A stretch of DNA of 64,000 nt from a virus (Duplodnaviria; Caudoviricetes). Shown piece by piece: positions 2,973 through 46,320 of this stretch (its first letter is position 1; each line of letters begins with the position of its first letter). The notes under the pieces were generated by a model, which saw nothing but the letters and a program-made list of their open reading frames with translations, did not search any database and had not been told where the DNA came from. The translations under genes were made by a program, and so were the position numbers. Location of the stretch: IMG/VR virus record IMGVR_UViG_3300047157_000186; one strand, written 5' to 3'.

Positions 2973-3351
2973 ATGGCAAGAAAGAAAAATTATTTAAATA
3001 ACAAAGATCTTTATAACGAACTTGTAAAGTCAAAAGAATTAGACAAATTAACACCAACTGCAGAAAAAATGTTAGTGTTATTAGCAGAAAGAACTATTAA
3101 CAAATTAAACTATGTTAATTCAGATGATCGAAACGATTGTTTACAGTTTGCTCTATTAGATCTTTTAAAATATTGGAGAAATTTTAATCCAAAATATACC
3201 AAACGCATTTGCGTATTTTACAGAAATAGCAAAAAGAGGATATGCAAAAGGTTGGAATAAAATTCATCCACAGAAATATAAAGGCACGTTATCGATGGAT
3301 AAGAATTCTACAGGAGGTGATAGTGAAAACGGCGGAATGTTTAACATATAA
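2973..3351 (+). CDS. gp55: Late-transcription sigma factor (T4 gp55-like); one indel near 3200
   Basis: YLNNKDLY, DDRNDCLQFALLDLLKYWRNFNP, then in the shifted frame NAFAYFTEIAKRG. Confidence 0.8.
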
Positions 3352-3839: not shown

Positions 3840-4468
3840 TGGGAAAATAAAAAAGGACATTAAGGAATTAAGTAAAGAAGCTGGCGGTAAAAACTAAAGC
3901 ACGATCTGAGGTGCTGAAGAATGGTTTGAAAGACATCTAAGAAATCTATTAGAGACAATTCAGTTGCCAAATATAGCAAGAAGATTTAAACCAGGACAAG
4001 TCTATGTATTTAGATATGATAATCCTAAAAATATTAAAACTCACCGTGGTGGGATAGAAATCCAGTAGTATTAGCATTGGACCCATGCAGGTAATAAGAC
4101 TGTTGGTATTAATTTAAACTTATTACCAGTACATATTAAAGAAGAACTATTAGATGTAGTTTACGACAGATTCCAAGGTTAGATTAATCAAAGTCAAGAA
4201 GGGCATCAAAAGACAATGCTAATGACACAAGGCAAATAAACCTATCATTAACTTAAGATGGTGCAAAAGGCTTTTTAAAACAATTTGGTTTTGATTTTGC
4301 GATTAGACAATATATTCCACTAGTCGTAAAACCAGAACAAGCAGGTAGTTTCTTATGAACAGTTGGGCAAAAATAGCACTATGTGACTTTCTATGACTTA
4401 GATGGCATTGGAATTAACGAAGTTGGTGCGTATTAGGGCACACCTTCAGAAACCACTTAAATAAATGA
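3839..4468 (+). CDS. gp2: DNA end protector (T4 gp2-like), fragmented by indels
   Basis: FKPGQVYVFRYD, WWDRNPVVLAL, GINLNLLP and FAIRQY recoverable across frames; TAATG overlap with gp4. Confidence 0.7.
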
Positions 4469-4497
4469 GATATATAAAACAGAAATAATACTATATT

Positions 4498-6100: not shown

Positions 6101-6128
6101 AACAATGATTAAAAAAGATATATAAAAC

Positions 6129-6467
6129 ATGAAAATTATCAAAACATTTAATGACTTCATATCTGAAGATGCTCTTAGAGCTGGGGAAGATTCTAAAGTC
6201 ATAATCGACGATCTAAAGTTAGATTCTGGTCCTGAAATTAAATCTGCTGAAATTCTAGGAGCTATTACAGCAGCTTTAACTGATGAAGAATTTAAGCAGT
6301 ATTTTTATGAAACATATAGCGAAGCTGCCTTTGCAGAAGGTGAAATGGATATTCTAGTAGGCTATTATTTAGATAAATCGGCAGAAGAAGCTGAAGCTGA
6401 AAAGGAAGCTGAAAAGGAAGAAGAAGGTGGTGAAGAAGACAGCGATGACCCGCTTGCTGGAATGTAA
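6129..6467 (+). CDS. Small acidic prohead core / internal head protein
   Basis: Lies between portal and protease; N-terminus MKIIKTFNDFISE resembles the T4 capsid-targeting sequence; late promoter at 6117. Confidence 0.6.
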   Translation: MKIIKTFNDFISEDALRAGEDSKVIIDDLKLDSGPEIKSAEILGAITAALTDEEFKQYFYETYSEAAFAEGEMDILVGYYLDKSAEEAEAEKEAEKEEEGGEEDSDDPLAGM

Positions 6468-6523: not shown

Positions 6524-8671
6524 ATGAATAATAATAACGATTTATTGATCGTCGAGATGTCGTCATCTGCATTGAGTGTTACTCCATCGGATAATAAAGA
6601 CTACATTCTGGAAGGTGTTTTTGGTCAAATTGATCAAAAAAATAAAAATAACCGTATTTACACAGAATCCGAATATGTTCCTCAAATAGAAGCATTACAA
6701 CAAAAAATCGGAGCTAGTAAATTACTGGGTGAATTAGATCACCCTGCACAATTTGATATTTCTTTAAAGAATGTATCTCACATTATTGAAGAATTAACTT
6801 ATGACAAAGATTCTAAAGAAGTCAGAGGACGTATTAAATTATTAGATACAGATGCTGGTCGTCAAGCTAAAGCCTTAGTAGACGCTGGTGTACCTTTACA
6901 GATTTCATCTAGAGCTGCAGGTGCAGTTGAATCTAATGGACAAGTAAAAATTAAGCAATTGTTTACATACGATTTAGTAGCTGACCCTGGTTTTGAAAAC
7001 GCAGAGTTAAAGAGAGTTAATGAATCTTATGGTTTTTCAAACGACACAGGACTTTATATATATGAAGTTGGTGAAGCTAATTTAACTGAAAATATTGAAA
7101 ATAAAACTACAAACACACAAATAAAAGAAAATAAAAACATGGCAGAATTTGTAAAATCTGAGGATTTCAATAAGTACTCTGAGTATTTAGCGAATGAGAT
7201 CAAGACACTAAAAGAGTCTATTGAAGCTAAAGACGAAGCAGCTTCAGGCGAAAACACAGTAGAAAATCTAACACAACACAATAACCACATTGTAGAATCA
7301 GTTAATGATTTAACAGAATATGTAGGGTATATTGCTGAACAATTAGATGGTTCTATTCAGTATACGGAACATGTAGCTGAAAAAACAGATCAATCTATTT
7401 CTTATTCAGAAAGTATTGCTGAAAAACTAGATCAAGGTATTTCTTATACTGAGCATTTAGCAGAATCAGTATCTAAAGTTAAAGATTTCGCTAATTATTT
7501 AGCAGAAGCACATAACGAAGGTGCTGAATCAAACAACACTTTATTAGAATACGTTGAATACTTAAAAGAAAACTTACAATCTGTCTCTGAATACGCAGAA
7601 TACATTGCTGAATCTTTAAACGAAACTGTTGAAGAAGTTGAAGTTAATGTTGAAGCAGAAGAAGATAAAGAAGAAGATGTAGAAGCAGCTGATAACGTTG
7701 AAGGTGAAGAAGTTGCAAAAGAAGCAGGCGAAGATAACGAAGAAGTTACTGAAGAGACTGAAGAAGTTGAAGAGACTGAAGAAGTTGAAGAAGTTGAAGA
7801 GACTGAAGAAGTTACTGAAGAAGAAGATCCTGCAAAAGATAAAGACGAAGCTGAAGACACAGACGAAATAGAAAACATCGGTGATAATTCAGAAGAAGGT
7901 GCAGTTGCTGCAGATAGCGATGAAGCTGGAAAAGAAGTTGAAGAAATTGAAGACGAAGAAGTTGAAGCTGGAGATAATTCAGAAGAAGGCGACGTTGGAG
8001 GTGAAGAAGTTGCTAAAGAAGGTGACGAAGACGCTGACGATGCTGTAACATCAGATTCTGAAATCGAAGATGAAACTGAAGAAGCTGATGCTGGTGAAGG
8101 TGAAGAAGAAGCTGAAGGTGAAGATGGAGCACACGATCCATTAGAAGCTTATAAAGCAGATATCTCTTCTAAATTAGACGCACTAGTAGAAAATGCAACT
8201 AAAAAAGAAAATGAAAATCCTTCATTCTTTAAAGTAGTATCATCTGCAACTAGAAATAAATATAACGAATTATCAGAATCTGCTAAAACAGATGTTAGAG
8301 GAATCGTTTCTAAAAGAGGATTTATGACAGAATCAGAAATTATGTCAGTAATGAATGAAGCACAACTTATTGTTGAAAGTGCAGGAGCACAACCTACATT
8401 CATTGCACTTATGCCTTCTGAATATAAAGAAGCATGGGCTAATCTATCTGAATCTAAACAAAATAATATCATCGCACAATCTAAATACCACACATTGAAC
8501 ACAGAATATCAAGTTGCTAATTTCTGGCAAACTAGAGACTTAAGAGACACTAAAGTGGAATTAGAAAAAGTTGCAATGGTAACTGAAGCTAAGAAAGAAG
8601 AAACTAAACCAACATTAGGATATGATGTATCAGGTATGGCAGATGCTTTCAAACAAAGGTTCAATAAGTAA
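6524..8671 (+). CDS. gp21: Prohead protease (gp21-like) fused to a scaffold/core domain (gp22-like)
   Basis: LEGVFGQIDQKNKNNRIY, LLGELDHP, ISSRAAG, YDLVADPGF; followed by 14-aa helical repeats and a long acidic tract. Confidence 0.9.
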   Translation: MNNNNDLLIVEMSSSALSVTPSDNKDYILEGVFGQIDQKNKNNRIYTESEYVPQIEALQQKIGASKLLGELDHPAQFDISLKNVSHIIEELTYDKDSKEVRGRIKLLDTDAGRQAKALVDAGVPLQISSRAAGAVESNGQVKIKQLFTYDLVADPGFENAELKRVNESYGFSNDTGLYIYEVGEANLTENIENKTTNTQIKENKNMAEFVKSEDFNKYSEYLANEIKTLKESIEAKDEAASGENTVENLTQHNNHIVESVNDLTEYVGYIAEQLDGSIQYTEHVAEKTDQSISYSESIAEKLDQGISYTEHLAESVSKVKDFANYLAEAHNEGAESNNTLLEYVEYLKENLQSVSEYAEYIAESLNETVEEVEVNVEAEEDKEEDVEAADNVEGEEVAKEAGEDNEEVTEETEEVEETEEVEEVEETEEVTEEEDPAKDKDEAEDTDEIENIGDNSEEGAVAADSDEAGKEVEEIEDEEVEAGDNSEEGDVGGEEVAKEGDEDADDAVTSDSEIEDETEEADAGEGEEEAEGEDGAHDPLEAYKADISSKLDALVENATKKENENPSFFKVVSSATRNKYNELSESAKTDVRGIVSKRGFMTESEIMSVMNEAQLIVESAGAQPTFIALMPSEYKEAWANLSESKQNNIIAQSKYHTLNTEYQVANFWQTRDLRDTKVELEKVAMVTEAKKEETKPTLGYDVSGMADAFKQRFNK
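7740..7826 (+). repeat. Tandem GAAGAAGTT/GAAGAGACT repeats encoding EEV/EET in the scaffold linker
   Basis: EEVTEETEEVEETEEVEEVEETEEVTEEE. Confidence 0.85.
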
Positions 8672-8783: not shown

Positions 8784-10160
8784 ATGGCAAATTTATTAAA
8801 CGAAGCTGAGATCAAGAATACATGGGCACCGATTATCTCGGAAGCTACAGGTATCAACGAATCTAGCAAATTAGCGTGGATGTCGACTTACTGTCACAAC
8901 CACAAACTTTATGAAGACGCGAACATCATGTCTTTATCTAACAACCCTGGCCCAATGAACTTAACAGGTATGGGTGCAGTATCTTTTCCTGCTGGCGCTC
9001 CTGCAAACGGTGCAGCTGATGCAGCTAAAGGTTCTGGTGACAAAGCTCCAACATTATTGCCTTTGGCAATGCAAGTTGCTGCTCAAACTATCGGTTTAGA
9101 CTTAGTACCAGTAGTACCAATGGCTGGACCAATGGGATTATTGTCTTACTTAGACTTTACTTATGAAGGTGGTACTGTTGCATTAGGTGCAACTGCTCCA
9201 ACTTACATCAAAACAGCTTTAGCTAAAGCTGGTCTTGACGAAAATGTAGGTACATCAAGAATTGATGGAAAAAACATCATCAAGATTGTTGATGCAGTTG
9301 CTGCTGGTGAAACAATCGCTGACAGATATGCTGACGCTTCATTAGTTGCTGCATTAGAAGACCACATTGCTGGATTCTCTGGTGCTGACGCTAACGGTAA
9401 GCCAATGTCAAGAGAAGTTGGTGAAAGAACTGCTGATAAAGTAATGGGTCTTTCTTTATTCTCTAAAAGTGTTGCTGCTGAAACTTTCCAAGTTGCTGCT
9501 GCAGTTACAAGAGAACAAGTACAAGATTTAAAACAATTCGGTGTAGATGCTGTTGCTCAAGTTGAGTCAGTATTAACTAACGAATTAACTCAATCTATCA
9601 ACAACCACATCTTAACTAAGATGAGAGCTATCGCTGAAGAAGGAATTACTGAAGTTGCTTTAGATTACACTTTAGGTGGAAACACTTACGGTGATGTTAA
9701 CAGAAGAATCCTTACTCACGTATTGGCTGCTGCTAACTTAATCGCTAACAGAGGTAGAAGAGGTGCTGGTAACTTCGCTGTAGTTGATGCTAAATTAGCT
9801 TCAGCTTTACAAGGTGTTGCTGGTTTCGTACCAAACCCAATGGCTAACACATTCAATCAAGTTGCAGGTGCAATCTACCCAGTAGGTTCAGTTGCTGGTA
9901 TCAATGTTTACACTGATCCAAACTTAGCATTCGAAGGTGATGTTAATGGAAAGCACGAAATTCTAGTAGGTAGAAAAGGTGACGGTAACGGTGCTGGATT
10001 AGTATTCATGCCTTACTTAATGGCTGAATCAGTTCAAATGATCGCTGAAGGAACTATGGCTCCTAAAGTAGCGGTTAAATCTAGATACGCTCTAGTTGAA
10101 GCTGGTTTCCACCCAGAAACTGCATACCAAAAATTCAAAGTAGCTGGATTAAAACTATAA
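8784..10160 (+). CDS. gp23: Major capsid protein (T4 gp23-like)
   Basis: IGLDLVPVVPMAGPMGLLSYL, SKSVAAETFQVAAAVTREQVQDLK, RGRRGAGNF, FMPYLMA, KSRYAL; strong codon bias. Confidence 0.95.
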   Translation: MANLLNEAEIKNTWAPIISEATGINESSKLAWMSTYCHNHKLYEDANIMSLSNNPGPMNLTGMGAVSFPAGAPANGAADAAKGSGDKAPTLLPLAMQVAAQTIGLDLVPVVPMAGPMGLLSYLDFTYEGGTVALGATAPTYIKTALAKAGLDENVGTSRIDGKNIIKIVDAVAAGETIADRYADASLVAALEDHIAGFSGADANGKPMSREVGERTADKVMGLSLFSKSVAAETFQVAAAVTREQVQDLKQFGVDAVAQVESVLTNELTQSINNHILTKMRAIAEEGITEVALDYTLGGNTYGDVNRRILTHVLAAANLIANRGRRGAGNFAVVDAKLASALQGVAGFVPNPMANTFNQVAGAIYPVGSVAGINVYTDPNLAFEGDVNGKHEILVGRKGDGNGAGLVFMPYLMAESVQMIAEGTMAPKVAVKSRYALVEAGFHPETAYQKFKVAGLKL

Positions 10161-10213: not shown

Positions 10214-10287
10214 ATTTCTAGAAATATTTAAAATATTAAGAGGATATATAATATATTAACAAGGTAATTTAAAACAAAATAATAATT

Positions 10288-12114
10288 ATGAAACTTAAAT
10301 CAAAATTAAAACTTTACGAAGAGTTCGTAAATGAATCAACTAAAGAAACTACAACAACGACAGACTCTGTTGCTATAGATCAGGTTAGTGTTGATGCAGC
10401 TGCAGATTCTGCAGAAGCGGTTAGAACTGAAGTTATTAGAGACGTAGATACTATTCTTAATAATCTAGCTGAATTATCAGATAGAATTGGAGAATCAGAA
10501 TCTATTGCTTTAGAAATGGATGAATTATTCGAAGAATTATTCGAACTAACTAATGTTACAGAACTTAACGAAGGTATATTAGATTTTATTAAATCTCCTA
10601 TTAAGTTCATGAAAATTAAGAAAAATCTTAAATCATATCAAAAAGCCTTAGTACAAAAAGCAATTAACGATGTTGATTTCGCTAAGAAGAAACAGGCAGG
10701 TGATGCTGATGAGAAAGATAAAAAGAGAATGGAAACTCTAAAACAAGCCAATGAAGCCAAAAACAAAGCACTAGATGATCAATTATCTGCTATCGCAGAA
10801 AGAATGACAGAATTGTCAGGTGGAGATGAAGGTTTAGGTAAAGTTGTTTCTATTGGAAAAACAAAATCTAAATTAGCTGCGGCTAAAATAGTAATGAAAG
10901 CAACTTCAGGTGAAGAAGCAAAACAACTTAAATTAGAAATTGATACTTTAGTAGATAGAATTTCAGATGATGAAAAATCTCTTAAAGATTACGCTAAAAA
11001 AGCTGGTCCAGCTGATCATACAGATGCTGAACAATCAGGTGATAATGATAATGAGGCTAGTAGAGATCAAATGGCAGGTATAGGCACTGAAGATAAGCCT
11101 AAAGTTAAGACTAAGACAAAGGATGAAACTCCAGAAGAGAAAGAAGCTAGAATAAAGAAAGAAAAGACAGATAAGAATGCTCCTAAAATTGAAAAATTAG
11201 AAGCTTCAAAAACTAAAGCTAAAGAAGCATACGATGCTGTAGATGCAGGTAATAAGATTGAGAAAGCTAAAGCAAAAATTGCTTTTGTAGAAGTACAATT
11301 AGAATTAGCTAAACTTAAAGAAGATGATGCAGAAGTAATAAAAGGCTTTGAAGAAGAAATCAAAGCACTTAATATAACAGCTAATCGTAAAGCAGTTCAA
11401 GTACCAGCCGGTAATACAGAAACTGGTTCAGGCTCTGGTTCAGGTTCAGGTTCAGGCTCTGGTTCAGGTTCAGGCTCTGGTTCAGGTTCAGGCTCTGGTT
11501 CAGGCTCAGGCTCTGGTTCAGGCTCTGGTTCAGGTTCAGGCTCTGGTTCAGGAGGCGGTGAACCACAAAATAGCAATAACCAAATTTCTGTAGAAGATAG
11601 TATAACTATTAATGAAGCTACTCTTGGTGAACTAATGGCAACTACCGAAGATGATTACAAATACTTAAAGGGAGAAGCTAAGAAACTAGGAGTTAAAGTA
11701 TCAGTTTCAACTGGAAAAGATTCAATGTATGACGATATGGGATATGATACATTATCATTCAGTGGTGATAAAGCTGCTATTTTAAAATTAGCCAAAATTT
11801 CAGGTCATGATCAAGATATTTGTTCAGAACCAGATTGTGGTGGTTATGAGATTACAGAAGCCGTTGAAGTAACTGAAGAAACATCTGAAGAAGTTGAAGA
11901 AGGAAATGAATTCGGAGCTGCAAGAGCAGAAGCAATTGCAAAAGGTGAGAAAACATTTAAAGTAGGCGACGAAGAATATCCAGTAGAAGATGTTTCTAAG
12001 GAAGATGAAGAAAACGCTGAAGAATTTGTAGAAGAAGCAAAAGAAGAATTACCTAAAACTATTAAATTAGATGAAGGTTTAACTATTGCACAACGATTCT
12101 CAAGATTAATGTAA
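10288..12114 (+). CDS. Large acidic/lysine-rich putative internal head protein with a (GS)21 linker
   Basis: N-terminus [17 protein letters not shown] is CTS-like; many L/I-x-E sites; late promoter at 10243. Confidence 0.65.
11425..11550 (+). repeat. 21 x 6-bp tandem repeat (GGTTCA/GGCTCT/GGCTCA) encoding Gly-Ser
   Basis: 126 nt of in-frame hexamer repeats. Confidence 0.95.
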
Positions 12115-18157: not shown

Positions 18158-18238
18158 GAAGATATAATCAAAAGGTAGATAATTTACTAAATTTGTACTA
18201 CAATGATTTGTTAGATATATAGATTATAATATAATAAT

Positions 18239-18911
18239 ATGAGTGAAGACAAGAAAAAGACATATATCTGAACAAGCAGATCAAATAAGAAAGGAATTAG
18301 ATGATTTAATAGGGGACTAATGTATTGGATGTAGAAACAGATCCAACAGATCTGCCAATCAAACAACCCAGAACTAGATTTAGCACCACGTGTAAATTAT
18401 ACAGAATTAAAAGGTTCTAGTGCTACTAAAAAAGCAGACAAAAACTATTACAGCACTTATGAAATTTTATCTCGATGCAGATATTATTGAAAAGAGACGA
18501 ATATATTCAAGCTAAAAAAGCAAATGGATGAAATGACAATGTCATCTCTAATATATCAATTACAAGCTGGTGAAAAAGCATTAACTACACTCTATTAGAA
18601 ACAATTGACTCTGGTGAATTAGCACCAAGAATGTTTGAAGTTCTTGCAACTCTACAGAAATCAATGTTAGATATTATTAAATCTCAGACCATGTATTTAA
18701 TGGCTGCAGAAGAATCTACAAAAAGAATTGCTAGAGATATTGAAATCTATCAAGCAAAGAGAATGATCAAAGAAATTGAAGAAGCTGGTGGAGACACTGG
18801 TAATAAAAATATCCAAAGAGGTACAAAAGATTTAATGGCTGCAATTCAAGCAGGTATCATGGTGCATCAGAAGAAGATATTGAAGATGTAGAACCAACTA
18901 CAGAAGAATAA
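18239..18911 (+). CDS. Probable terminase small subunit, fragmented by indels
   Basis: Directly upstream of TerL; helical APRMFEVLATLQKSMLDII resembles the gp16-type PRxxEV motif. Confidence 0.55.
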
Positions 18912-20742
18912 TGATGTCAGACGGAATAGGAGATAATAAATGGATTCCCAAAGAAGAAGGGCCACATGCAGCTATCTGATAGAATTGTTTGGTCTACTAA
19001 ACAAGATCAATGATCTGTTGTTGCAATGGACCAGGGTTATCGTCCTAAGATTAAGTTGCCATTCTACGAGGGTAGACAATTTCTAAAGAAAGGTAATATT
19101 GTATTTGAATATACTGATGAAGAAATTACTGAATTAGCTAGATGCGCCAAGATATTGTTTATTTTGCAGAAAAGTATGCAGTAGTAATGACAGATGAAGG
19201 TATTCAACAAGTAAAACTTAGAGAATATCAAAAAAGAATGTTCGAAATTTCCAGAAGAAGATTTAATATTGTATTAGCTTCTCGGCAAATGGGTAAAACT
19301 GTAACTGCATCTATATTTAATGCATGGTACTTTATTTAATACAGATAAAAATACTCTTTTATTAGCCAACAAATCTGATTCAACAAAAGAAATTATTGAT
19401 AAAGCAAAAGTAGTTGTAGAAAACTTACCATTCTTTATGAAACCAGGTATTATTAAATATGATGTGATGAATGTAAGATGTGATAATGGTTGTCGATTAA
19501 TAGGACAATCAACTACAGCAAAATCAGGTATTGGTTTTACAATTCATAATTTATACCTAGATGAGTTTGCCCATATTCATCCATCGATTGCTAGATACTT
19601 TCTATGAGAATGTATATCCTACATTATCCTCATCGAAAGTCTCTAGAATTACTATTACATCTACGCCAAACGGATTTAATAAGTTCTATCAAATCTATGC
19701 TGCTGCAGATCGAGGTGATAATGAATACAGCAATGCGAGAATTGATTGGTGGCAACATCCAGATAGAGATGATGCTTGGTATGAAAGAGAGCTAGGAAAC
19801 TTAGGTTAGTATTGAAGCATTTAATAAACAATATGGAAATGAATTCGTTTCGCTCATCAAACCTTTTATTAGACCCAGTCGATATGAAGAAGATGAGAAA
19901 GAGAATGAAGAAATATGTTTATCATGACTTTGATGAATTTGATTATATTAATATTGATACAAAAGGTTTCTTAGAATGGGATCCTGACTTTGATATTGAA
20001 TACATGTAAAGATGCAGAAAACTTTTGGTTATTCTCAGTAGATATTGCAGAAGGTAATGGTGGTGATTATTCAGTGATTAATATATTTAAAGTCGATCCT
20101 ATGAATAAGAAGAAATTAAGAATTGTTAATCCTGGTGCGATGTATGATTTCTTTAAATTTAAACAAGTTGCTATATTTAGATCTAATGAACATGTTATAG
20201 AAGATTTTGCAAAGGTACTTATATACTTTAGCAGTAGATATTTTATCACGAGAATGTAAAAATGATTGTAGAGTATAATACTTATGGTACAGTTTATTCC
20301 AATATCTAAGAAGTATATTTCCACAAAGAAATGATTTTGATGATGAAATGATTAGTAAAATTCAGACATCGACATGACGCAAAGACATTAAAACCAGGAA
20401 TAAAACTAAAATCTGACAATAAAGCTATCTTTTGTCAGAATTTTGCAAAATTATATAAGATAAATAGATTAGATTTAACAGATGAAGTTACAGTAAATGA
20501 AGCTAGTCTTATTTGGTACTTTACCAAATGGAAGTTATGGAGCTCAAATGGGAAACGATGATGTCATTATGACATTATTACTGCAACTGAATTTTTTAAC
20601 ACAACAGATTATGCAGATTTATTGAGGAACTCTTAGATTTCATAGATCCTGATCTTCACGACGAGATGGAAAGCTATCTTATTTAAAGATAGTGATTTCA
20701 GCAAGGAGATTTACAATATGACATTTATGACCTATTAAATAA
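18911..20742 (+). CDS. gp17: Terminase large subunit (T4 gp17-like), fragmented by many indels; end approximate
   Basis: LREYQ, VLASRQMGKT, LANKSDS, LYLDEFAH, ITSTPNGFN, VDIAEGNGGDYS, GNDDVIM. Confidence 0.92.
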
Positions 20743-20800
20743 ATTTGCGAAAAAGACAAGGATATATAATAAAAGAATTAAAAAATAAAAACGAACAATT

Positions 20801-23393
20801 ATGGCATTAAGTCCTCAATTATTACAGTTCAAAAGCTCAGGCGTATATCGCTTAGAGTTTGACAAATCACAGACCGTTAACATCCCTGCTGAAACTATTA
20901 GATTAGTTGTAGGTAGATCTAAAAAAGGTCCTTACAACACTCCAGTATTATAGAAGATGTTGAACAATTCAAACAAGTTTTCGGTGGGTATTGATAAGTC
21001 TTTAGAAAAGAAAGGAATGTTCTTCCACAGATCAGCTATCGAAACTCTATCAAGAGGTCCGATTTTGGCATTAAACTTAACTATCAGCTGACGCAGCTGA
21101 TAGAAGTATGCAATTTTATCTCCAGCAACTAATTCTCTCAAGAAGGTTTATCAGCTAAACACTTCAAGCTTCTGTTCTAAGAAATTTAGCGATGTATTTG
21201 ATACAGATAAGTTTTGGAATCCTTCTGATGATCAAAATTATTACTGCTGCTGCAGAAGACGACTCAAACCACGCAATCATTTGTAATATCAAACAAGATC
21301 CTATTACAGTTATCGTAGACAAGCTGCTGATACTAGAGGTTTTGAATTAACAGCAAGAGAATGGTACGGTGAAGGAAATATTCCAGAAGGAATCGAAGCT
21401 TAGAATACGTATCTGACTACATGGTAGATGTATTTGTATTCAAAGGTAAGTTTGATGCACAAGTATTAAATAATGACCCAACATACGGAGCATATTTTAA
21501 TCAAAGATGGATTATTAAAATCAGAATTTGCAAAATTCACTGGTTTAAGAGAAGTAACTTTTTAGCACAATACACTGGATCATCTTTAATTCCTGAATTT
21601 AAGATGCAAGAAGGTCGTCAATTATACATTGAGACTTTAATTAACTTGGAAGCTAGAAGAACAGGTTTATTCTGTGCTGTCAAGAAGATGCTTTAGAAGC
21701 AATTGATTTCGTAGGTAAAGGGTACCAAGATTATAAAGTATTATCACATTTGCACAAGATGCTATGATGCAATACCAAGAGTTAACTATTAGAAACGCTA
21801 AGTATTTAAATCTTTACATCACAACAGAGTAAGAGCTGCTTTAGAAGGAGAATTTACTCCAATTAGTTCAATAAGCCCATCTGGATCTATTAGGTGCAAA
21901 TGGACTTGATTACGTAGGAATCGGTTCAGTTGAAGAATTACAACCACTTGGAGATATAAACGTAGTAAAAATTACTGCAGCAGGTGGAAACGCATTTAGT
22001 TCAACTTACGCAGCAGCAAGTGCAGATAAATTAACTGCATATTTAAGAGCTCAATCAGCTACAATAGAATATACTACTATCGAGCCTAACTCGAGAGCAG
22101 TTATGTTACCAACATTAGTTGATGATTATTCATTTACTCCACTAGGAGCTGGACAATTTAGATTATCCGCTACTTTAGCTAAAGATACATTTGATTGGTC
22201 AGAAGTTTCAGTAGGAATGTATATTCCAGCTGACGGAACTGAATTAGCAAGAATTAAAAGAATTATTAAGACTACTGAAGGTGGTTCTAATATTTATTCA
22301 TTCGAATGTCACAGACCTGTATCTTTAAGACCAGAATATGCTCTTAAAAGATATGAAGAAAGTACAACTACTTATACAGTATTCCCATTAGCGGCTGCAA
22401 CACAGAGCGCTAAAACAAAAGCTGAGTTATTAACTCAACTAAGACCAGGAAATGGATTATCAAACACATTAATTGACAAGGACGCAATTACATTCAGATA
22501 TGTTGTTGATACATTCGGATCATTAGAAAACAGTGGAATCTTAAATAAAGAAGAATTACTCAACTTTGTAAAGAAAGACAAAATGCATCTGCAATTCTTA
22601 ACGCACCAATGGTGAAAGAATTTAAAGGATCAACTAATCCTTCTTTTAAAGACGCTAATACTGGATCATTCGATACAAGATTACGTATGCAACTGGTGGT
22701 AATTTAGAACTTAACCCAACTGCAGTGTATACATTACCAAGTATCAATGAAGGTGCAAACTTACGCATTCTACTATGGTCCTGGTCTTAATGTATTGAGA
22801 ACGGTAAAACAAAGGTGATTCCACCAGCGGCTTACGTATCTAATAACTACATTGACAAATACTTAGACGCATTACCATGGTCAATCATTGCAGGACCAAG
22901 AAGAGGTGTTGTAGGTGGTACAGGTGTACAAGGTTTAGAATTCGCATTTGATAAAAATGATAGAGATTACTTAGAGCCATTTGGTTAACCCAATCGTATT
23001 CGAAAGAGGCGTTGGTTTAACTATCAAAGGTAATAAAACTGCACAACAAGGAGTTCAATCAGCATTATCTTCAGCTCACGTAAGAGAAGCAATGATCTAT
23101 ATTGAAGATGGTTTAGCAGAAATCTTAAAAACTACCTATTCGAGTTTAACAACGCTCAAACTAGATTAGAGATTAAAACTTTAGCAGATAACTTTATGGA
23201 ATCAGTTAAAAAAGACGGAGGTGTATACGACTATAGAAACGTCATGGACGGAACAAACAACACTAACGAGGTTATCGATAACAACATGGGTATTTTAGAT
23301 ACATTCGTTGAGCCAGTTAAAGGTCTTGAAATCTTAGTATCGAGAGTAACTATCTTGAATACAGGAGAAATCGCAACAGGAAACTTTGCATAA
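20801..23393 (+). CDS. gp18: Tail sheath protein (gp18-like), fragmented by many indels
   Basis: MALSPQLLQFKSSGVYRLEFDKSQ, KGPYNTP, IAGPRRG, NPIVFERG, GNKTAQ, HVREAMIYIE, ILDTFVEPVKGLEILV. Confidence 0.92.
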
Positions 23394-23428
23394 CAAAATT
23401 AGATATATAAAATAAACACATACAAATT

Positions 23429-23986
23429 ATGGCTTTACCACATTATTCAGAAGATCAAACTAGCAAGAAAGGTAAGAATTTCGAACCAGTACAGGCTAAC
23501 CTATTTGAGGTAACTATTTTACCTCCTGACGGTGTTGCTGGACAAGAGATGTTATTACAACATGTTAAACACTATTTCTGGTCTTGCAGGATTACATAAA
23601 GAAGTTGCTGCTATCGAACAAAAGTATAAATTTGCTACTAGATCTTATGCTGGTATGATTGATAGAACTGCGTTAGATATAACTGTAAACTTTTCATTAA
23701 ACTTAAATGATTCTAACCAAGCGTACTTATATAAAACATTAGACAATGGTACAGAGCACAATACAATCCAGAAACTGGTGAAATGGGTCTTAAAAAGAAT
23801 TATGTAGGTACAATCGTAATCGTACAATTCAACAGAGAAGGTGATATTTTTAGAAAAGTAACACTTGATGACTGTTTCATCACTTCAGGTCTTGGATTTA
23901 CAGATGCATTAGATTATTCATCTGCAGAAGTACAAACATTAGAGATCACTTGGAGATCTGATGTATATGCAGAAGAAGTAAACTAA
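23429..23986 (+). CDS. gp19: Tail tube protein (gp19-like), two indels
   Basis: EPVQANLFEVTI, ITVNFSLNLN, IVQFNREGDIFRKVTL, LDYSSAEVQTLEITWRSD; follows the sheath gene. Confidence 0.85.
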
Positions 23987-24002
23987 TTATTAATTAATTA
24001 CA

Positions 24003-24038
24003 AATAAGAAGGTGTATAATTACATCTTCTTATTTTTT
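24003..24038 (+). terminator. Rho-independent terminator after the tail tube gene
   Basis: 14-bp stem AATAAGAAGGTGTA/TACATCTTCTTATT plus T run. Confidence 0.85.
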
Positions 24039-24078
24039 GCAAGATAAATATAATATATTATTAACATATCAAATTATT

Positions 24079-24297
24079 ATGAATAACCACAAATTAACAA
24101 AAAAACTACAAGTTCTCTTAACGGAGGACGAGGTTTCTTCGGTTAATCGATGCATTTTAAACGATGCAATAGATACTGAAACGAGGCCAGTTTCTGTTAG
24201 TGCATGGATAAGAGACTTAATAAAAAAAGAACTAAGTCTACAATCTATTGACCAACAGTCGTTTATTAAAAATAAAGTAAAAAATTTAAATAAGTAA
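24079..24297 (+). CDS. Small hypothetical protein, possibly ribbon-helix-helix-like
   Basis: KKLQVLLTEDE...SVSAWIRDLIKKEL pattern; ATG 24079 is more plausible than the TTG at 24037. Confidence 0.45.
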   Translation: MNNHKLTKKLQVLLTEDEVSSVNRCILNDAIDTETRPVSVSAWIRDLIKKELSLQSIDQQSFIKNKVKNLNK

Positions 24298-24302
24298 ATA
24301 AC

Positions 24303-25305
24303 ATGAGTAAAGAAAACCAAAACAAAAAAGAAGAAGCTGCAAAAAAAATGCTGGAAGCCAGAGATAGTATCAATGAGCCAGTACAAGACAACTCAGTAGA
24401 AGATGTTTCTGTTGAAATGTTAGATGCAGTCGAGTCCAAGGGACTTGGTAAAGTAAACATGGACCAATTCGGACAAGCTAGACCAGATAAAACTTCGGAT
24501 CAATTCCTAGGTTGGATGGTTTTAGATCAGTCGGAATTACCATCTAATGGTAAATTTTATCCAAACGGATGTGTTATTAAAATTAGATCAGCGAGAGCTG
24601 CTGAGATTAGACACTTCTCAACTATGGATGAAGAGAACTATATTGATATGGAAGAAAAACTAAACCATATTGTAGAGATGTGTACTCAGATTATGGTTGG
24701 AGATAAGAGAGCATCTTATAAAGATCTTTTAGAAGAAGATAGAATTGTAATTCTATTAGCTATTAGAGATCTTACTTTCCCAGAACCAGAAAATAAGCTA
24801 ATTCTTAAAGGTAAAACTGAAAACTAAAAAAACTGTAGATATTGAATTATCTTCAAGATATTTAGTCGCAACAGAAGTCCCGACAGAAATAGAAGGATAT
24901 TATAGTTCTAAAGAAAGAACATACGTTATCAAAACTAGATCTGCTGGTGAAATCAGAATGCGTCCACCTTCAATTGGTGTTATGCAAGAAATAACTAAGT
25001 ATTTAAAGGATCGTCAAGAAAAAGAAGTTGAATTCGATAAAGCGTTTATACAAGTTTTACCTTATATTACGCCTGATTGGAGACAATTAAACTTACCTAA
25101 GATCTTTAATTTAGAAGTAGATTACAAAGCATGGGATCAGAAAAAGTTTATGGTAATTTATAGGTTAGCTGAAAAAATGAAAATTGGTGTACAAACAACA
25201 CTAGAAATGGAATTCGATGGGGAGATCGCAAAAGCCCCTCTTGATTTCCCAGGTGGCATCAAAAGTCTTTTCATTATTTCAGATCTCGCTGGAGAATTAC
25301 TTTAA
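24303..25305 (+). CDS. gp26: Baseplate hub assembly / tail chaperone (gp26-like), one indel near 24825
   Basis: ELPSNGKFYP, DLLEEDRIVILLAIRDLTF, IRMRPP; ends GGIKSLFIISDLAGELL. Confidence 0.65.
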
Positions 25306-25552
25306 GACTAAGTTCTATCTGGGCATACATCTCAGAATGCAACCTTCAGAAATAGAAAATTTATTTTATTATGAATTTTGGTACTATGTAAAAAATCTGT
25401 CGGACTACATTAAAGAGAAGAATAATCAGAACAAGGATCAACAAGAACAACAGGCACAACAACAGAGTGAAATGAGCTCTAAATATAAAACGCCTAAGAT
25501 GCCGTCGGTCCAATCTTTTAAAGCACCTTCTATGAAGATGCCTAAATTTTAA
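25217..25552 (+). CDS. gp51-like baseplate hub / tail assembly protein overlapping the gp26 3' end in the +1 frame; true start uncertain
   Basis: SLENYFKTKFYLGIHLRMQPSEIENLFYYEFWYYV resembles T4-like gp51 SLENYYKTNF...ELENM.PWE. Confidence 0.6.
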   Translation: MGRSQKPLLISQVASKVFSLFQISLENYFKTKFYLGIHLRMQPSEIENLFYYEFWYYVKNLSDYIKEKNNQNKDQQEQQAQQQSEMSSKYKTPKMPSVQSFKAPSMKMPKF

Positions 25553-34199: not shown

Positions 34200-34283
34200 A
34201 CAAAATAAAACACATTGGTATAATATAAGTGAACAACAAAAAAAAAGGTTCTTTGATTTATTGGTAGAGAAAATACGTTAGAT

Positions 34284-34365
34284 GCTCGGGTGATGAAATC
34301 GGTAAACATGTTCGACTTAAAATCGAATGGCCACAGCCTTGCGGGTTCGAGTCCCGCCCCGAGCA
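34284..34365 (+). tRNA. tRNA-Leu(TAA)
   Basis: GCTCGGG/CCCGAGC acceptor, TTCGA-CTTAAAA-TCGAA arm, variable arm, TTCGAGT. Confidence 0.95.
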
Positions 34366-34425
34366 CCCAAATATTTTTGGTAGACGTGTCTGTTAATTTT
34401 CTTAAGTACCATAGATATATAATCT

Positions 34426-34860
34426 ATGAAAGATAAAGTAACAAAAGATGAATTAGTAGAAGCTATTAATTCTTCAATAACAATGGCACAAGCAGCAGAC
34501 AAAGTTGATTTAGCATTTACAACATTTAAAAGATACGCTAAAAAACATGGTCTATATAATGCTAATCAAGGTGGCAAAGGAACACGTCGACCACTTAAAA
34601 AACTTCAAGATGTTTTTTCAGGTAAAGAACATTTAGTAACAAACCATCTTAAATATCGTTTGATACTAGAAGGCTTTAAGACCGAACAATGTGAGGAATG
34701 TGGTATAACAGAATGGAATGGTAAAAATATTTCTTTTGAACTTGATCATGTAAATGGAAAAAGAATGGACAACTCATTAGAAAATCTAAAAATTCTATGT
34801 CCAAACTGTCATTCACAAACACCAACATTTAGAGGTAGAAATATTCGTATGGACCAGTAG
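34426..34860 (+). mobile_element. Free-standing HNH homing endonuclease inside the tRNA array
   Basis: CEECG...ELDHVNG...DNSLENLKILCPNCHSQT with an N-terminal HTH-like segment; own late promoter at 34414; stop codon lies within tRNA-Arg. Confidence 0.85.
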
Positions 34861-34927
34861 CTCAGCTGGATAGAGCATCTGCCTTCTAAGCAGACGGTCA
34901 CAGGTTCGAATCCTGTCTGGTTCACCA
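34851..34927 (+). tRNA. tRNA-Arg(TCT), CCA encoded
   Basis: GGACCAG/CTGGTTC acceptor, TCTGC-CTTCTAA-GCAGA arm. Confidence 0.95.
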
Positions 34928-34950
34928 ATATCGACTGTCAGTCAAGCTTT

Positions 34951-35071
34951 AGAGAGGTAGTGAAGCTGTAGTTAAGAAGTAGAGTGTATTAATTGTCGAA
35001 AAAGGGTTTATAGTAGACAGGCGTTACTCATTGCACTTAACCAGAAACCCCGAAAGACCCGAAGCCTCTCT
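34951..35071 (+). ncRNA. Candidate structured RNA between tRNA-Arg and tRNA-Glu
   Basis: AGAGAGG/CCTCTCT closing stem, GTTAAG/CTTAAC, GAGT/ACTC, TTGTC/GACAG; loop GGGTTT complementary to AAACCC. Confidence 0.5.
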
Positions 35072-35076
35072 TATTT

Positions 35077-35148
35077 GCTCCGTTCGTCTAACGGTTAGGA
35101 CATTAGGTTTTCATCCTAAAAATAGGAGTTCGATTCTCCTACGGAGTA
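35077..35148 (+). tRNA. tRNA-Glu(TTC), CCA not encoded
   Basis: GCTCCGT/ACGGAGT acceptor, TTAGG-TTTTCAT-CCTAA arm. Confidence 0.93.
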
Positions 35149-35157
35149 CAACAGATT

Positions 35158-35234
35158 GATCTCTTAGCTCAGTTGGCTAGAGCATCTCACTTTTAATGAG
35201 AGGGTCCAGGGTTCGAGTCCCTGAGGGATCACCA
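35158..35234 (+). tRNA. tRNA-Lys(TTT), CCA encoded
   Basis: GATCTCT/AGGGATC acceptor, TCTCA-CTTTTAA-TGAGA arm. Confidence 0.95.
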
Positions 35235-35237
35235 TAT

Positions 35238-35314
35238 AGTCAAGTATCTCCTCAAGCTTATACCTTGTAGAAAGAGTAATTGGTTACATGAGAGTTCAAA
35301 TCTCTCCTTGACTA
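35238..35314 (+). ncRNA. Non-canonical tRNA-like RNA: perfect acceptor and T-arm, rearranged D/anticodon region
   Basis: AGTCAAG/CTTGACT plus discriminator A, GAGAG-TTCAAAT-CTCTC T-arm, internal CAAG-CTTATAC-CTTG and GTAA-TTGG-TTAC hairpins. Confidence 0.75.
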
Positions 35315-35376
35315 CCTGTGGAAGAAATTTAATTATATTAATGATATATAGTTTTCAACTAAAAAAATAATAAGTA

Positions 35377-35520
35377 ATGAATTCTGAACAATCAAACAAT
35401 GGAAACACTCAGATAAACCATGAGAGAGCAAGTCTCAACAGTAGAGTTTCTAAATTTATGATGCTTGGTAAATCCAAGAAAGTACAATGGGACGGTAGAA
35501 GAAGAAACCGCACCATTTAA
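35377..35520 (+). CDS. Small basic peptide (47 aa) within the tRNA array
   Basis: ATG..TAA ORF behind the late box at 35343. Confidence 0.5.
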   Translation: MNSEQSNNGNTQINHERASLNSRVSKFMMLGKSKKVQWDGRRRNRTI

Positions 35521-35526
35521 AAGGCC

Positions 35527-35600
35527 GCCTTTGTAGCTCAGCTGGCTAGAGCAGCGCATTTGTAATGCGCAGGTCGTGGGTTCGAGTCCCTCCAAAGGCT
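35527..35600 (+). tRNA. tRNA-Thr(TGT), CCA not encoded
   Basis: GCCTTTG/CAAAGGC acceptor, GCGCA-TTTGTAA-TGCGC arm. Confidence 0.93.
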
Positions 35601-35606
35601 CATTAA

Positions 35607-35679
35607 GCGAAAGTAGCTCAGTTGGTAGAGCGAAAGCCTTCCAAGCTTTAGGTCGCCAGTTCGAACCTGGTCTTTCGCT
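35607..35679 (+). tRNA. tRNA-Gly(TCC), CCA not encoded
   Basis: GCGAAAG/CTTTCGC acceptor, AAAGC-CTTCCAA-GCTTT arm. Confidence 0.93.
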
Positions 35680-35684
35680 CATAA

Positions 35685-35906
35685 TCGAGAAATAAAGACA
35701 ACTCGGGACAAGCATAAGAGTCCTTAAACAATGCAGGCCACTACCTCGCGAGCCTACAATAACATAAAACGTGGGGTCTGGGATTCTAAAGGACATAACA
35801 AACCTACCCAGTAGTTTGACTAATTTTCATGTGGTAAGACACTAATGCGTTTTATTGAAGAGAAAGAAAAACCGTTAAAATCCAGTCTAACAAGTCTTAG
35901 TTAGGC
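35685..35906 (+). ncRNA. Candidate structured RNA between tRNA-Gly and tRNA-Asp
   Basis: AGGC/GCCT, ATAAAACGT/GCGTTTTAT, CTGGG/CCCAG and GTCTAAC/GTTAGGC stems; TAAGAC complementary to loop GTCTTA; no good ORF. Confidence 0.4.
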
Positions 35907-35913
35907 GCAATAT

Positions 35914-35990
35914 AGTCTGGTAGCTCAGTTGGTTAGAGTGTCGCCCTGTCACGGCGAAGGTCGCGGGTTCGAGTCCCGTCCAGACTGCCA
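35914..35990 (+). tRNA. tRNA-Asp(GTC), CCA encoded
   Basis: AGTCTGG/CCAGACT acceptor, TCGCC-CTGTCAC-GGCGA arm. Confidence 0.95.
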
Positions 35991-43252: not shown

Positions 43253-43269
43253 TATTTGATATATAATAC

Positions 43270-44439
43270 ATGAGATTAGTAGAATCATTTAAAAATTTTA
43301 AGCTTTTATTAGAAGCCAACAATTCTCTTAAATTAAATGTTCCAAAGGATATTTTAGAATTGCATAAACTATTTAAACAAAATGGCAAGGAATTGTTTAT
43401 TGTGGGTGGTGCAGTGAGAGATGCATTGCTAGGTAAAAAGCCAAAGGATTTTGATTTGGCAACTGATGCGTTTCCTGCAGAAGTTATAGATATTGTTACT
43501 AACGCTGGTTACTCAACTACTGGAGAAGTTGGTCATCAATTTGGAGTAGTTATTGTAAATGTACCTTCGGATCCAGCGGGTGTTGAGATTGCAACATTTA
43601 GAGAAGATGTTGGAAAGGGAAGAAGACCAGATGCAGTGGAATATTCTACAATTGATAAAGATGTATTAAGAAGAGATCTAACAATTAATGCACTATTTTA
43701 TGATATGGGCAGAAAAGAGATTGTAGATTTAGTTGGAGGTTTAGATGATATAAAAAACTCAAAAATTAGAACAGTTGGTGTCGCCGCAGATAGATTTGCA
43801 GAAGATCCACTTAGAAAATTAAGGGCGTTGCGATTTGCAGGTAGAACAGGATCAAAATTAGAAAAAGAAACTGCAGATGCTATTTTAATCGATAATAGTT
43901 TAGAAGGTATTAGTTCTGAAAGAATTAGAGATGAATTTAAGAAATCTATTGTTTCTGCAAAATCAGCAAAGAGTTATTTAAACATGGTATCAGAATTTAA
44001 TTTGTGGTCAATCATGTTTCCATCTTTACAAATTAACGAAAAGTTTATTAACACTAACAATTGGATAGTACAGATTGCAATTCTATTTAGTAATAATGAT
44101 AATGATACAATACAGAAGGAATTAAATAAAGCATCGTTTACAAACGGTGAAATTGATTCAATATTATTCCTAAAGAGTTTAATGACGTTTGATATAAATG
44201 ATGTATTTAATTTACATAAACAATATATGAAGATTCAAATATCTTCTAAATTAGACACCAAAACTATTCTAGAATTTGCAAAAATTAATAAACTCGACAC
44301 TAAAACTTTAAAAGTGTTCTTTAAATATAAACCATCAACCAAAGGTGGAGATGTCATGAAAAAGTTTGGCTTAAAAGGATCTGCAATATCCGATAAGATC
44401 AATCAAATAGAAGCAGAGAAGTTCAGAAGTCTTATTTAG
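43270..44439 (+). CDS. cca: CCA tRNA nucleotidyltransferase / poly(A) polymerase family (class II)
   Basis: VGGAVRDALLG, DFDLAT, EIATFR, RRDLTINAL, RFAEDPLRKLRALRF, ERIRDE; late promoter at 43258. Confidence 0.9.
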   Translation: MRLVESFKNFKLLLEANNSLKLNVPKDILELHKLFKQNGKELFIVGGAVRDALLGKKPKDFDLATDAFPAEVIDIVTNAGYSTTGEVGHQFGVVIVNVPSDPAGVEIATFREDVGKGRRPDAVEYSTIDKDVLRRDLTINALFYDMGRKEIVDLVGGLDDIKNSKIRTVGVAADRFAEDPLRKLRALRFAGRTGSKLEKETADAILIDNSLEGISSERIRDEFKKSIVSAKSAKSYLNMVSEFNLWSIMFPSLQINEKFINTNNWIVQIAILFSNNDNDTIQKELNKASFTNGEIDSILFLKSLMTFDINDVFNLHKQYMKIQISSKLDTKTILEFAKINKLDTKTLKVFFKYKPSTKGGDVMKKFGLKGSAISDKINQIEAEKFRSLI

Positions 44440-44505
44440 ATCAAATAAGTATTTTACAAGATATATACATTGTAGCATTATGCATAAAAAATACATTGTT
44501 ATACA

Positions 44506-44799
44506 ATGGCAAAAGAATTAAATGAAGACAGCGGAATTAAAGTTAGTGTAAAAACACTAATCGCAATAGCTGTGGCAATCACAACAGTGGTAAGTTTTTG
44601 GTTCGCATTCCAAGCTCAACTCGATGATATGAGAGATGAGATAGAAGCAGCTAAAACTCTACCAGCTCCTAACATTTCTAGAACTGAATATGAACTCAAA
44701 GATGAGTTAGTACGTTCTACAATATTAAATACACAAGAAGATGTAGAAGAAATGAAAGAGGATTTAAAGGCAATTGAAAAACATCTTCGTAACAGATAA
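44506..44799 (+). CDS. Membrane-anchored coiled-coil protein
   Basis: One TM helix (LIAIAVAITTVVSFWF) then heptads; late promoter at 44460. Confidence 0.65.
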   Translation: MAKELNEDSGIKVSVKTLIAIAVAITTVVSFWFAFQAQLDDMRDEIEAAKTLPAPNISRTEYELKDELVRSTILNTQEDVEEMKEDLKAIEKHLRNR

Positions 44800-44800
44800 C

Positions 44801-45910
44801 ATGAAAAAACTATTATTACTTATTATCGCGTTGGTATCATTTAGTACTGCGGACGCACAGATTACAAAGAAGGTTAAGAAATTCTTTAAATACTCTACTA
44901 TTTATGGAGTTGCTGGAGAAGCACAACCACAAACTAGCACACAAAAAACTTATTTCGTAGATCAAGGTGGAGAACTATTTGATGTTACACCAGATGCTGA
45001 AACTAATTATTCTTATGGTTTTGGTATTAGAAAGGTTGCAAGATTTGATTATGAGAATAAACCTAATGCGTTCTATGATGGTACAGAAATCCAAACAGGA
45101 TTAAGTTCTAATATAGGTGCTGTTAAAGGTTGGGAATATAAATTCCAATGGGAATGGGCAAGACAGTTTGGTAATGAATACACAAGAGAAGATATATTTC
45201 TTAGATATTTAGGAGATAACTTTATCTTTAAACTAGAACAAATGCAAGATGGTCTTGCAGATTTGGATTACAGGGCAGTAGATCTTAGATGGAGAAAACC
45301 AATAGGTAAAAAACTTAACCTTTCTATCGGTGCTGCATTTAGAACACATAGACCTTATGGTTACTTACCAATTGCAGATTACTTAGATGATAATCCATGG
45401 TGGCAATTAGCATACGACAATGGTTACAATGATAACTATTATGGTATCGATTATGATAACGATGGAGAATTAGATAACTTTGATTTCTTTTGGAATGATG
45501 AAAATGGTGAGAGAGTTTCAGATACAGATTTAGATTTTAGAACTAATGTATTCGGTGGTATTGTAAATGACTTTAATAGAGAAAGACTTATACAAATTGA
45601 AGATCTTGGTACAATATCTCCAGTAATTGGATTAGATTTTTATCATTATTCACAAGATGGAAATAACTGGGCACACATTTACACTTCAGTTATGCCATAT
45701 CACCAACAGGTTATGGGTAACAAAGACTTTTCTTATGGTAAGTTTATTAGTGAAGGAGAAGATGCGCAATGGACTGATTTTACAATCGGTGCAATGACAG
45801 GATGGAAAATAACAAAGAAGTTAGGTGTTTTTGCAGAAATGAATTATCTACAATATTGGGATAGACAAGTATTTACTGCTAAAGCTGGCTTAAACTTCCA
45901 ATTTAGATAA
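44801..45910 (+). CDS. Secreted, probable outer-membrane beta-barrel protein
   Basis: Sec signal MKKLLLLIIALVSFSTADA, alternating aromatic beta-strands, C-terminal GLNFQFR. Confidence 0.6.
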   Translation: MKKLLLLIIALVSFSTADAQITKKVKKFFKYSTIYGVAGEAQPQTSTQKTYFVDQGGELFDVTPDAETNYSYGFGIRKVARFDYENKPNAFYDGTEIQTGLSSNIGAVKGWEYKFQWEWARQFGNEYTREDIFLRYLGDNFIFKLEQMQDGLADLDYRAVDLRWRKPIGKKLNLSIGAAFRTHRPYGYLPIADYLDDNPWWQLAYDNGYNDNYYGIDYDNDGELDNFDFFWNDENGERVSDTDLDFRTNVFGGIVNDFNRERLIQIEDLGTISPVIGLDFYHYSQDGNNWAHIYTSVMPYHQQVMGNKDFSYGKFISEGEDAQWTDFTIGAMTGWKITKKLGVFAEMNYLQYWDRQVFTAKAGLNFQFR

Positions 45911-45912
45911 TT

Positions 45913-46320
45913 ATGAAAAAGATAGTAATTGTATTTTTATTAGCATTTGGATTAATGGCATCGTCTACGATAGCAGATTCAACTAATGCAGGAATAACTG
46001 AGGGAGAACCAAAGTATTTAACTTCTGACACATTTAGCAAGTCTATTAATACAGGTATAGTTATTGTAGAATTTGTAGCCTCTTTTGTTGAGCCATTTTC
46101 AGAATGGGAAGCAATAGAAGATGGAACATATTACAGAGTAGATATTGAAAAATACCCAGATCTTAAAAAGAAATACAAGGTAAGATCTATTCCAACTATT
46201 TTAGTATTCAATAACGGAAGTAAAGAATTAACATATCGTGCAAACATTATGTTAGAATTAGATGTAACTGCTGAAGAAATTCACGAAGACATAGAAGATA
46301 TATTCTCCGATAAATTTTAA
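45913..46320 (+). CDS. Secreted thioredoxin-fold protein lacking CxxC
   Basis: Signal peptide; VIVEFVASF, RVDIE, KYKVRSIPTILVFNNG. Confidence 0.7.
   Translation: MKKIVIVFLLAFGLMASSTIADSTNAGITEGEPKYLTSDTFSKSINTGIVIVEFVASFVEPFSEWEAIEDGTYYRVDIEKYPDLKKKYKVRSIPTILVFNNGSKELTYRANIMLELDVTAEEIHEDIEDIFSDKF

Follow-up and report, generated by a model that had tools for sequence, protein, structure and literature searches.

The 64,000-nucleotide stretch of DNA analysed here (hereafter the window) comes from a large, uncultured, T4-related marine phage and encodes a CCA-adding-type tRNA nucleotidyltransferase (cca) whose extra N-terminal leader resembles both the leaders of two proteins of the phage's own head module and the tag with which T4 loads proteins into its head. 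Because this leader is combined with a late-type box in front of the gene, the enzyme is probably delivered by the virion; the explanation that we favour, and to which we give somewhat better than an even chance, is that cca is a late-made CCA-adding enzyme with a T4-type capsid-targeting propeptide, packed in virions and injected with the DNA. The family and fold of the enzyme, its extra, unstructured and conserved leader, the likeness of that leader to those of the head module and the motif statistics are observations, and from them we infer late timing, targeting, cleavage, injection and the role in the cell. A sequence-only reading of the same DNA had proposed a virion-delivered enzyme; the pairing of a late-type box with a capsid-targeting-like propeptide on cca was upheld, and packaging, cleavage and injection are kept in the conditional below.

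The phage and its head module

The window is AT-rich (32% G+C), carries nearly all of its genes on the + strand and devotes its left third to a T4-type morphogenesis module, recognised by Pfam and PHROG profile matches (Table 1). The prohead protease-scaffold fusion (PHROG head maturation protease, phrog_207, E 7e-44; PF03420 match) has six [YHS][ILV]AE repeats, read from the sequence, in its scaffold-like region; the T4 record shows LIAEA, KIAEK and KIAEQ in gp22. The major capsid protein contains a candidate cut, KLYE↓DA, at residues 41-45 (the arrow marks the position of cleavage here and below). For ORFs 6129 and 10288, which border this core of the module, Pfam and PHROGs returned nothing informative, and tblastn of ORF 6129 against phage records found no match. 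Around residues 380-425, in mid-protein, the ORF 10288 product holds a long perfect (Gly-Ser)n linker.

Judged by the capsid protein (tblastn), the nearest records are uncultured huge phages, Lak phages and Tenacibaculum phage PTm1, T4-like phages also being matched, and the clade is common in marine metagenomes, where contigs reach ~250 kb. In two parts of the window (4498-6100 and 18200-25550), frame changes split the portal gene and many of the genes for tail and packaging functions, with a few TAG or TGA codons in frame as well; these breaks may be assembly or sequencing errors and not biology, and the cca region, unlike them, is intact. The N-terminus of the 95-aa ORF near the left end presumably resembles that of the T4 late sigma factor gp55; its tblastn matches are unannotated huge-phage genes, and it is followed by ~1.2 kb (within 2973-4470) free of any ORF of at least 70 aa.

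Table 1. Positions of the window features discussed in the text (ORFs are named by their first nucleotide).
Feature	Position	Strand	Description
95-aa ORF	2973-3260		Candidate gp55-like gene (presumed likeness of N-terminus)
gp15-like protein			Left-third morphogenesis module
Portal gene, fragmented			Left-third morphogenesis module, before ORF 6129
ORF 6129-6467 with late box, 4 nt apart	6117-6467	+	112 aa; small, acidic; between portal and protease; canonical T4-like leader
Prohead protease-scaffold fusion	6524-8671	+	715 aa; Peptidase_S77 (T4 gp21-type) in N-terminal ~190 aa, then acidic scaffold-like region
gp23-type major capsid protein	8784-10160	+	PF07068, E 2e-47; N-terminal delta region
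ORF 10288-12114 with late box	10243-12114	+	608 aa; acidic; coiled-coil and (GS)n regions; just 3' of capsid gene
Neck and tail genes			Left-third morphogenesis module, after ORF 10288
tRNA gene outside array	30070
tRNA array	34283-35990	+	Seven of the nine window tRNA genes (ARAGORN, Rfam)
Late-type box GATATATA	43258-43265	+	4 nt 5' of cca ATG
cca, class II CCA-adding-type tRNA nucleotidyltransferase	43270-44439	+	389 aa; complete
N-terminal leader of cca, residues 1-22	43270-43335	+	F7 and F10 (i, i+3), then L13-x-E15↓A16; putative capsid-targeting propeptide and prohead-protease site
tRNA gene outside array	50726

The CCA-adding enzyme

The cca product matches PF01743 (PolyA_pol head, E 5e-32) and the RNA-binding domain PF12627, and its sequence matches in the PDB include CCA-adding enzymes and, with a comparable E-value, E. 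coli poly(A) polymerase. The AlphaFold model computed from an alignment of 79 homologues has a mean pLDDT of 92.3; its top full-length Foldseek matches (4x4w, 6qy6 and 1miv; TM 0.65-0.69 over ~385 columns) are to true CCA-adding enzymes, namely those of human mitochondria, Planococcus and Bacillus stearothermophilus, and the head-neck-body-tail architecture is, as modelled, complete. Among the 79 homologues, G46, R50, D51, D60 and D62 of motif A (GGAVRD...DFD) are invariant, as are R134, R135 and D136 of motif B (RRD) and L181 and R182 of motif D (EDPLRKLR), in which E178 and D179 are nearly so. Sequence and model together place the protein in the class II CCA-adding type, and exact C-C-A addition is the predicted activity.

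An extra, unstructured and conserved leader

The first ~20 residues of cca (MRLVESFKNFKLLLEA) are extra relative to other CCA enzymes. Solved cellular CCA enzymes align to it only from residue 23-34 onwards, so that this extension, present just as the sequence-only reading had described it, is not a feature of ordinary cellular CCA enzymes. Nor is it found in Vibrio phage KVP40, whose enzyme starts directly at the catalytic head (MKANLNLMKKYIVGGAVRD); the KVP40 gene is an intact but unannotated 365-aa ORF (locus L086, 2471-3568; ~226100-227200 of the KVP40 record) that lies between gene 23 and KVP40.0365 on the strand opposite to the head genes. Of 150 diverse cca representatives (36-52% identity), 39 are long fusions and 40 have little or no extension; in the remainder it measures 10-45 residues. 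Residues 1-17 of the AlphaFold model fall below a pLDDT of 50, against 92 overall, and the leader as modelled is not needed for the fold.

Clade members all have F10, E15 and A16, and at position 7 they have F, L or Y. The codons at these conserved leader positions differ synonymously, which argues that the leader peptide is translated and under selection. A mis-called start was rejected, as the ORF offers no other start codon upstream of residue 146 and the leader's protein sequence is conserved. In 711 ORFs (117 k aa), the cca-type pattern [FYL]xxFxhhxE[AS] was found at the start of no other protein and had only a single internal match. A second type of leader, (L/I)LREYI(R/K)E..h.E, which likewise ends in h-x-E, recurs in other lineages on homologues of cca (P0326, P0350, P0338, P0370, P0357 and others).

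Likeness to the head-module leaders and the T4 tag

In T4, the ten N-terminal residues of IPIII are sufficient for packaging; of these, Y4 and F7 matter for targeting and I8 and E10 for processing by gp21, whose cleavage follows L/I-x-E (PMC9026906). The tag MKTYQEFIAE, which heads two genes in the T4 record (where gp23 reads FLTE↓A), and the L/I-x-E rule had both been invoked in the sequence-only reading and agree with that record and with the literature (PMC9026906); the similar termini that it had pointed out on ORFs 6129 and 10288 are also there. ORF 6129 begins with MKIIKTFNDFISEDA, and its family has MK(I/F)IKTFE(E/D)F(I/V)xE; 120 homologues preserve KTFE[ED]F[IV]xE, with KTFEEFIAE in some members. 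The leader of ORF 10288, conserved in 106 homologues, ends in LYEEFVNE↓S; distant members of that family have KTYEEFVNE, and F-TAQ-LVNE↓A and NFEHFRIIKE↓A occur as spacing variants. A strict regular expression for the leader occurs only twice in the 16.8 k aa of window ORFs, at precisely the N-termini of ORFs 6129 and 10288.

The aromatics F7 and F10 of cca occupy the same positions as those of ORF 6129, and the cca variant MKIIESFENF equals the 6129-family MKIIKTFEDF at eight of ten positions. In cca, by comparison, two additional residues separate the second aromatic from L-x-E↓A relative to the canonical arrangement (F7-I8-x-E10 in T4). Spacing variants are present in both the 6129 and the 10288 families, and the 10288 homologues P0487-P0490, which begin with MKELVNFEHFRIIKEA, have cca-type spacing in the same register. 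Trained on the N-termini of the 6129 family, which are nearly identical, a position matrix was overfitted and placed cca only fourth, and BLOSUM comparison and regular expressions were used instead. On these sequence comparisons, cca appears to share its leader, in register, with the head-module proteins and to follow it with a putative h-x-E↓A site of the T4 protease type.

A late-type box before cca

The 8-bp, A/T-rich GATATATA motif, whose presence ahead of cca had been noted before, occurs 19 times on the + strand of the window and never on the - strand, with 6.6 copies expected from shuffles and 19 reached in 0 of 100 of them; every copy is intergenic. Thirteen lie within the head and tail structural module, where they precede almost every structural gene or operon, and the other six precede an HNH endonuclease gene, a 47-aa ORF at 35377, a gene at 36144, an endolysin cassette (membrane protein, methyltransferase and endolysin-like protein), cca and a cluster of envelope-protein genes. 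Strand counts of GATAWATA in three related contigs (50/6, 38/1 and 40/2) have the same bias. Such a box is what a T4-type late promoter looks like, and expression of cca would, on this ground, be late.

Exactly 4 nt lie between the box and the ATG at cca, at ORF 6129 and at the HNH gene (window 6117-6131, 34414-34428 and 43258-43272), and the same fixed layout recurs in relatives (loci L056, L060, L052 and L058), where several tagged genes share it; this suggests that some late genes carry mRNAs that are leaderless or have a very short 5' end. Since the box ends 4 nt before its ATG, a leaderless mRNA is possible for cca as well. The gap to the upstream ORF is only 17 nt and holds no terminator, so earlier read-through is possible and expression of cca may not be confined to the late phase.

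Inspection of eight distinct relatives from the clade showed that each has both the leader and a late-type A/T box upstream of cca, which confirms the co-occurrence of extension and box in these relatives. The box lies 4-5 nt before the cca ATG in relatives with GATATATA, GATACATA, AATAAATA or GATAAATA and further upstream in those with AATATATA or GAATAAATA; in one relative (G002), cca and the orthologue of ORF 6129 both use GATAAATA. Just 3' of cca in the window (44460-46320), a late box heads what looks like an envelope-directed late cluster, whose genes encode a membrane protein of 97 aa and two proteins with signal peptides, one of 369 aa that may form an outer-membrane beta-barrel and the other with a thioredoxin fold.

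Tagged genes and cca fusions in relatives

The association of cca with the leader extends beyond close relatives. On a contig of ~348 kb, a cca of 36% identity is preceded by AATATATA, 5 nt and an ATG that opens a canonical YSEFLNE leader, and other cca representatives begin with KNYDTFVNES, FYEFVNES or FKDFIKEN. M-[KR]-x4-[FY]-x-x-F opens 23 coding-strand genes in one related contig and 16 in another, and no gene on the opposite strand of either; counts of leader-bearing genes, taken from related IMG/VR contigs, run to 16-23 or more per relative. Such leaders in relatives continue with F-[ILV]-x-E in 22 of 28 cases, and some of the genes that bear them flank cca. Their cargo includes a HIGH-type nucleotidyltransferase and a ligase-like protein, most of it having no informative Pfam or PHROG match, and the replication genes and major structural genes are without the leader. 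PTm1, the nearest cultured relative by capsid protein, has neither cca nor an evident head-module leader, and its proteome is for that reason uninformative here.

In other lineages, the cca core is an internal module of fusion proteins of 500-1900 aa, and there too it is preceded by hhxE[AS]xxLKLxIP. E15 and A16 could thus belong to a conserved linker or structural feature; equally, this invariant pair could be a retained cut site, if these polyproteins are cut by a prohead protease. In P0250, P0254, P0293 and P0248 (IMG/VR loci L036-L042), cca is a module of multi-enzyme proteins of 850-1930 aa that also comprise cytidylyltransferase-like, 2H/Acb1-like, DUF5661, AAA_33 kinase-like and HD modules and C-terminal ligase-like (EKTDG) modules. 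These proteins have h-x-E[AS] motifs near their module junctions, and the same contigs encode a distant gp23-like capsid protein.

tRNA genes as candidate substrates

CCA is clearly encoded by the window's genes for tRNA-Arg, tRNA-Lys and tRNA-Asp, and by that for tRNA-Leu according to its ARAGORN ends, the Rfam ends leaving this case ambiguous; it is absent from those for tRNA-Glu, tRNA-Thr and tRNA-Gly within the array and from those for tRNA-Ser and tRNA-Ala elsewhere. The sequence-only reading had put the CCA-less genes at six of nine; that most lack CCA is correct, and the number is five, or six if the Rfam ends are used for tRNA-Leu. These CCA-less tRNAs are likely substrates of cca. A tenth, tRNA-like element at 35238-35314 scores 31.3 bits in Rfam against a threshold of 29, with ARAGORN silent, and an HNH homing endonuclease gene with a late box of its own (34426-34860) sits inside the array. 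Given the CCA-less phage tRNAs and the distant fusions in which cca is joined to kinase-like, HD, 2H and ligase-like modules, we infer a role for the enzyme in tRNA maturation or repair.

Proposed mechanism and alternative explanations

Under the favoured explanation, the late-type box of cca would drive its transcription, perhaps into a leaderless mRNA, and the enzyme would be made as a precursor with an N-terminal propeptide of ~15-20 residues, this lineage's version of the T4 tag. The aromatic pair F7/F10 would direct this precursor to the scaffold core while the prohead assembles, and there the gp21-type prohead protease would cut it after L-x-E15; the mature enzyme would stay in the head, enter the next host cell with the DNA and there complete or restore the 3' CCA of phage tRNAs, or of host tRNAs damaged by defences. 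Several findings count against packaging: the h-x-E of cca is two residues off the canonical position, the cca of the T4-like phage KVP40 is untagged and the box leaves no 5' UTR.

These findings leave some room for an ordinary cytoplasmic enzyme, whose extension would be a neutral or vestigial linker from a multi-enzyme ancestor and whose box would simply boost late tRNA maturation. T4 too has late promoters ahead of non-virion genes, many jumbo phages encode an untagged cca, CCA must be added to five or six of the tRNAs of this phage, and the stretch before the core recurs within large fusions. Yet the aromatic pair is absent at the fusion junctions while being selected at the protein level in stand-alone cca, the canonical leader returns on the 36%-identical enzyme, and the neighbours of cca in relatives bear the same leader, so that we regard this account as unlikely. 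Much the same low probability is given to a tag that is real and shared but not meant for the capsid, serving instead a cytoplasmic complex, timed proteolysis or the translation of leaderless mRNAs. The tag may have another purpose because relatives carry dozens of leader-bearing genes per genome, far more than T4 and with many more types of cargo (the HIGH-type nucleotidyltransferase and ligase-like protein among them), and several tagged genes have the box 4 nt before the ATG; against this stand the close match to the experimentally defined T4 capsid-targeting sequence, the presence of the leader on two head-module proteins encoded beside a gp21-type protease, the conserved Glu at the T4 processing position, which fits a Glu-specific prohead protease, and the synonymous variation, which argues against a purely RNA-level role.

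A further doubt concerns the reaction and applies wherever the protein goes: instead of CCA, it might add poly(A), only A or only CC, or it might have a different RNA substrate, for instance the tRNA-like elements. The Pfam domains of class II CCA-adding enzymes are also those of A-adding enzymes and poly(A) polymerases, and the E. coli poly(A) polymerase is among the PDB matches noted above; the best full-length structural matches are nonetheless true CCA-adding enzymes, motifs A, B and D are intact, and the phage has its five or six tRNA genes without CCA; we hold this alternative to be improbable. The loading of a CCA-adding enzyme into virions by way of a T4-type propeptide remains the explanation that we prefer.

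Comparison with known systems and implications

The closest parallel is provided by IPI, IPII and IPIII of T4, which likewise have an N-terminal tag of ~10-15 residues with aromatics at i and i+3, an h-x-E↓A motif (here a putative cut site) and late expression (here predicted). In both systems, the head module also encodes a gp21-type protease and an acidic scaffold, and the cargo genes, unrelated to one another in sequence, are grouped near tRNA genes in variable regions. The differences are that the leader described here has at least three extra N-terminal residues, with the cut motif of cca two residues further on, that the cargo is a 43-kDa RNA enzyme in place of small basic DNA-associated proteins, and that relatives have dozens of tagged genes where T4 has three. 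For the delivery of an enzyme there is the precedent of T4 Alt, an ADP-ribosyltransferase that is packaged in the head, trimmed by gp21 and injected, and that acts before phage gene expression (PMC9026906); its chemistry and target are unrelated to those of cca, and the Alt propeptides are not an IP-type tag.

Class II CCA enzymes of jumbo and T4-like phages (e.g., KVP40) share family and fold with cca and occur in phages with tRNA sets of their own, although that of KVP40 is without the leader. phiKZ, 201phi2-1 and SPN3US are likewise large phages in which many head-loaded proteins are trimmed after Glu by a gp21-like protease; their ejection proteins are cleaved at S/A-X-E, unlike cca, and neither a T4-type aromatic tag nor a CCA enzyme is reported for these ejection proteins in the searchable literature. 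The distant cca fusions with kinase-like, HD, 2H-phosphoesterase and ligase-like modules recall the RNA-end repair by T4 Pnk and Rnl1 (versus PrrC) and suggest a role in RNA-end repair, the T4 pair differing in that it is made after infection, is not packaged and includes no CCA enzyme. No report of a virion-associated CCA enzyme or of this family of leader peptides was found in the searchable literature.

A broader and decidedly tentative proposal, which we think doubtful though possible, is that marine jumbo phages load a kit for RNA-end repair and tRNA maturation (cca, the ligase-like protein and the HIGH-type nucleotidyltransferase) into their capsids by the T4-type leader, that in sister lineages, where these modules form one polyprotein, the prohead protease would cut it at its h-x-E junctions, and that it would be injected to neutralise tRNA-targeting defences before phage expression. 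Bacteria often defend themselves by cutting or blocking tRNAs, and the known phage counter-measures (spare tRNAs, and the kinase and ligase of T4) act, to our knowledge, only after phage gene expression. If virion delivery is true, a tRNA 3'-end enzyme brought in by the virion would represent a pre-loaded counter-defence of a new type, and the capsid-targeting principle of T4 would extend to abundant uncultured ocean phages with dozens of candidate cargo proteins. The leader, moreover, offers a simple sequence handle by which candidate injected proteins may be listed in metagenomes.
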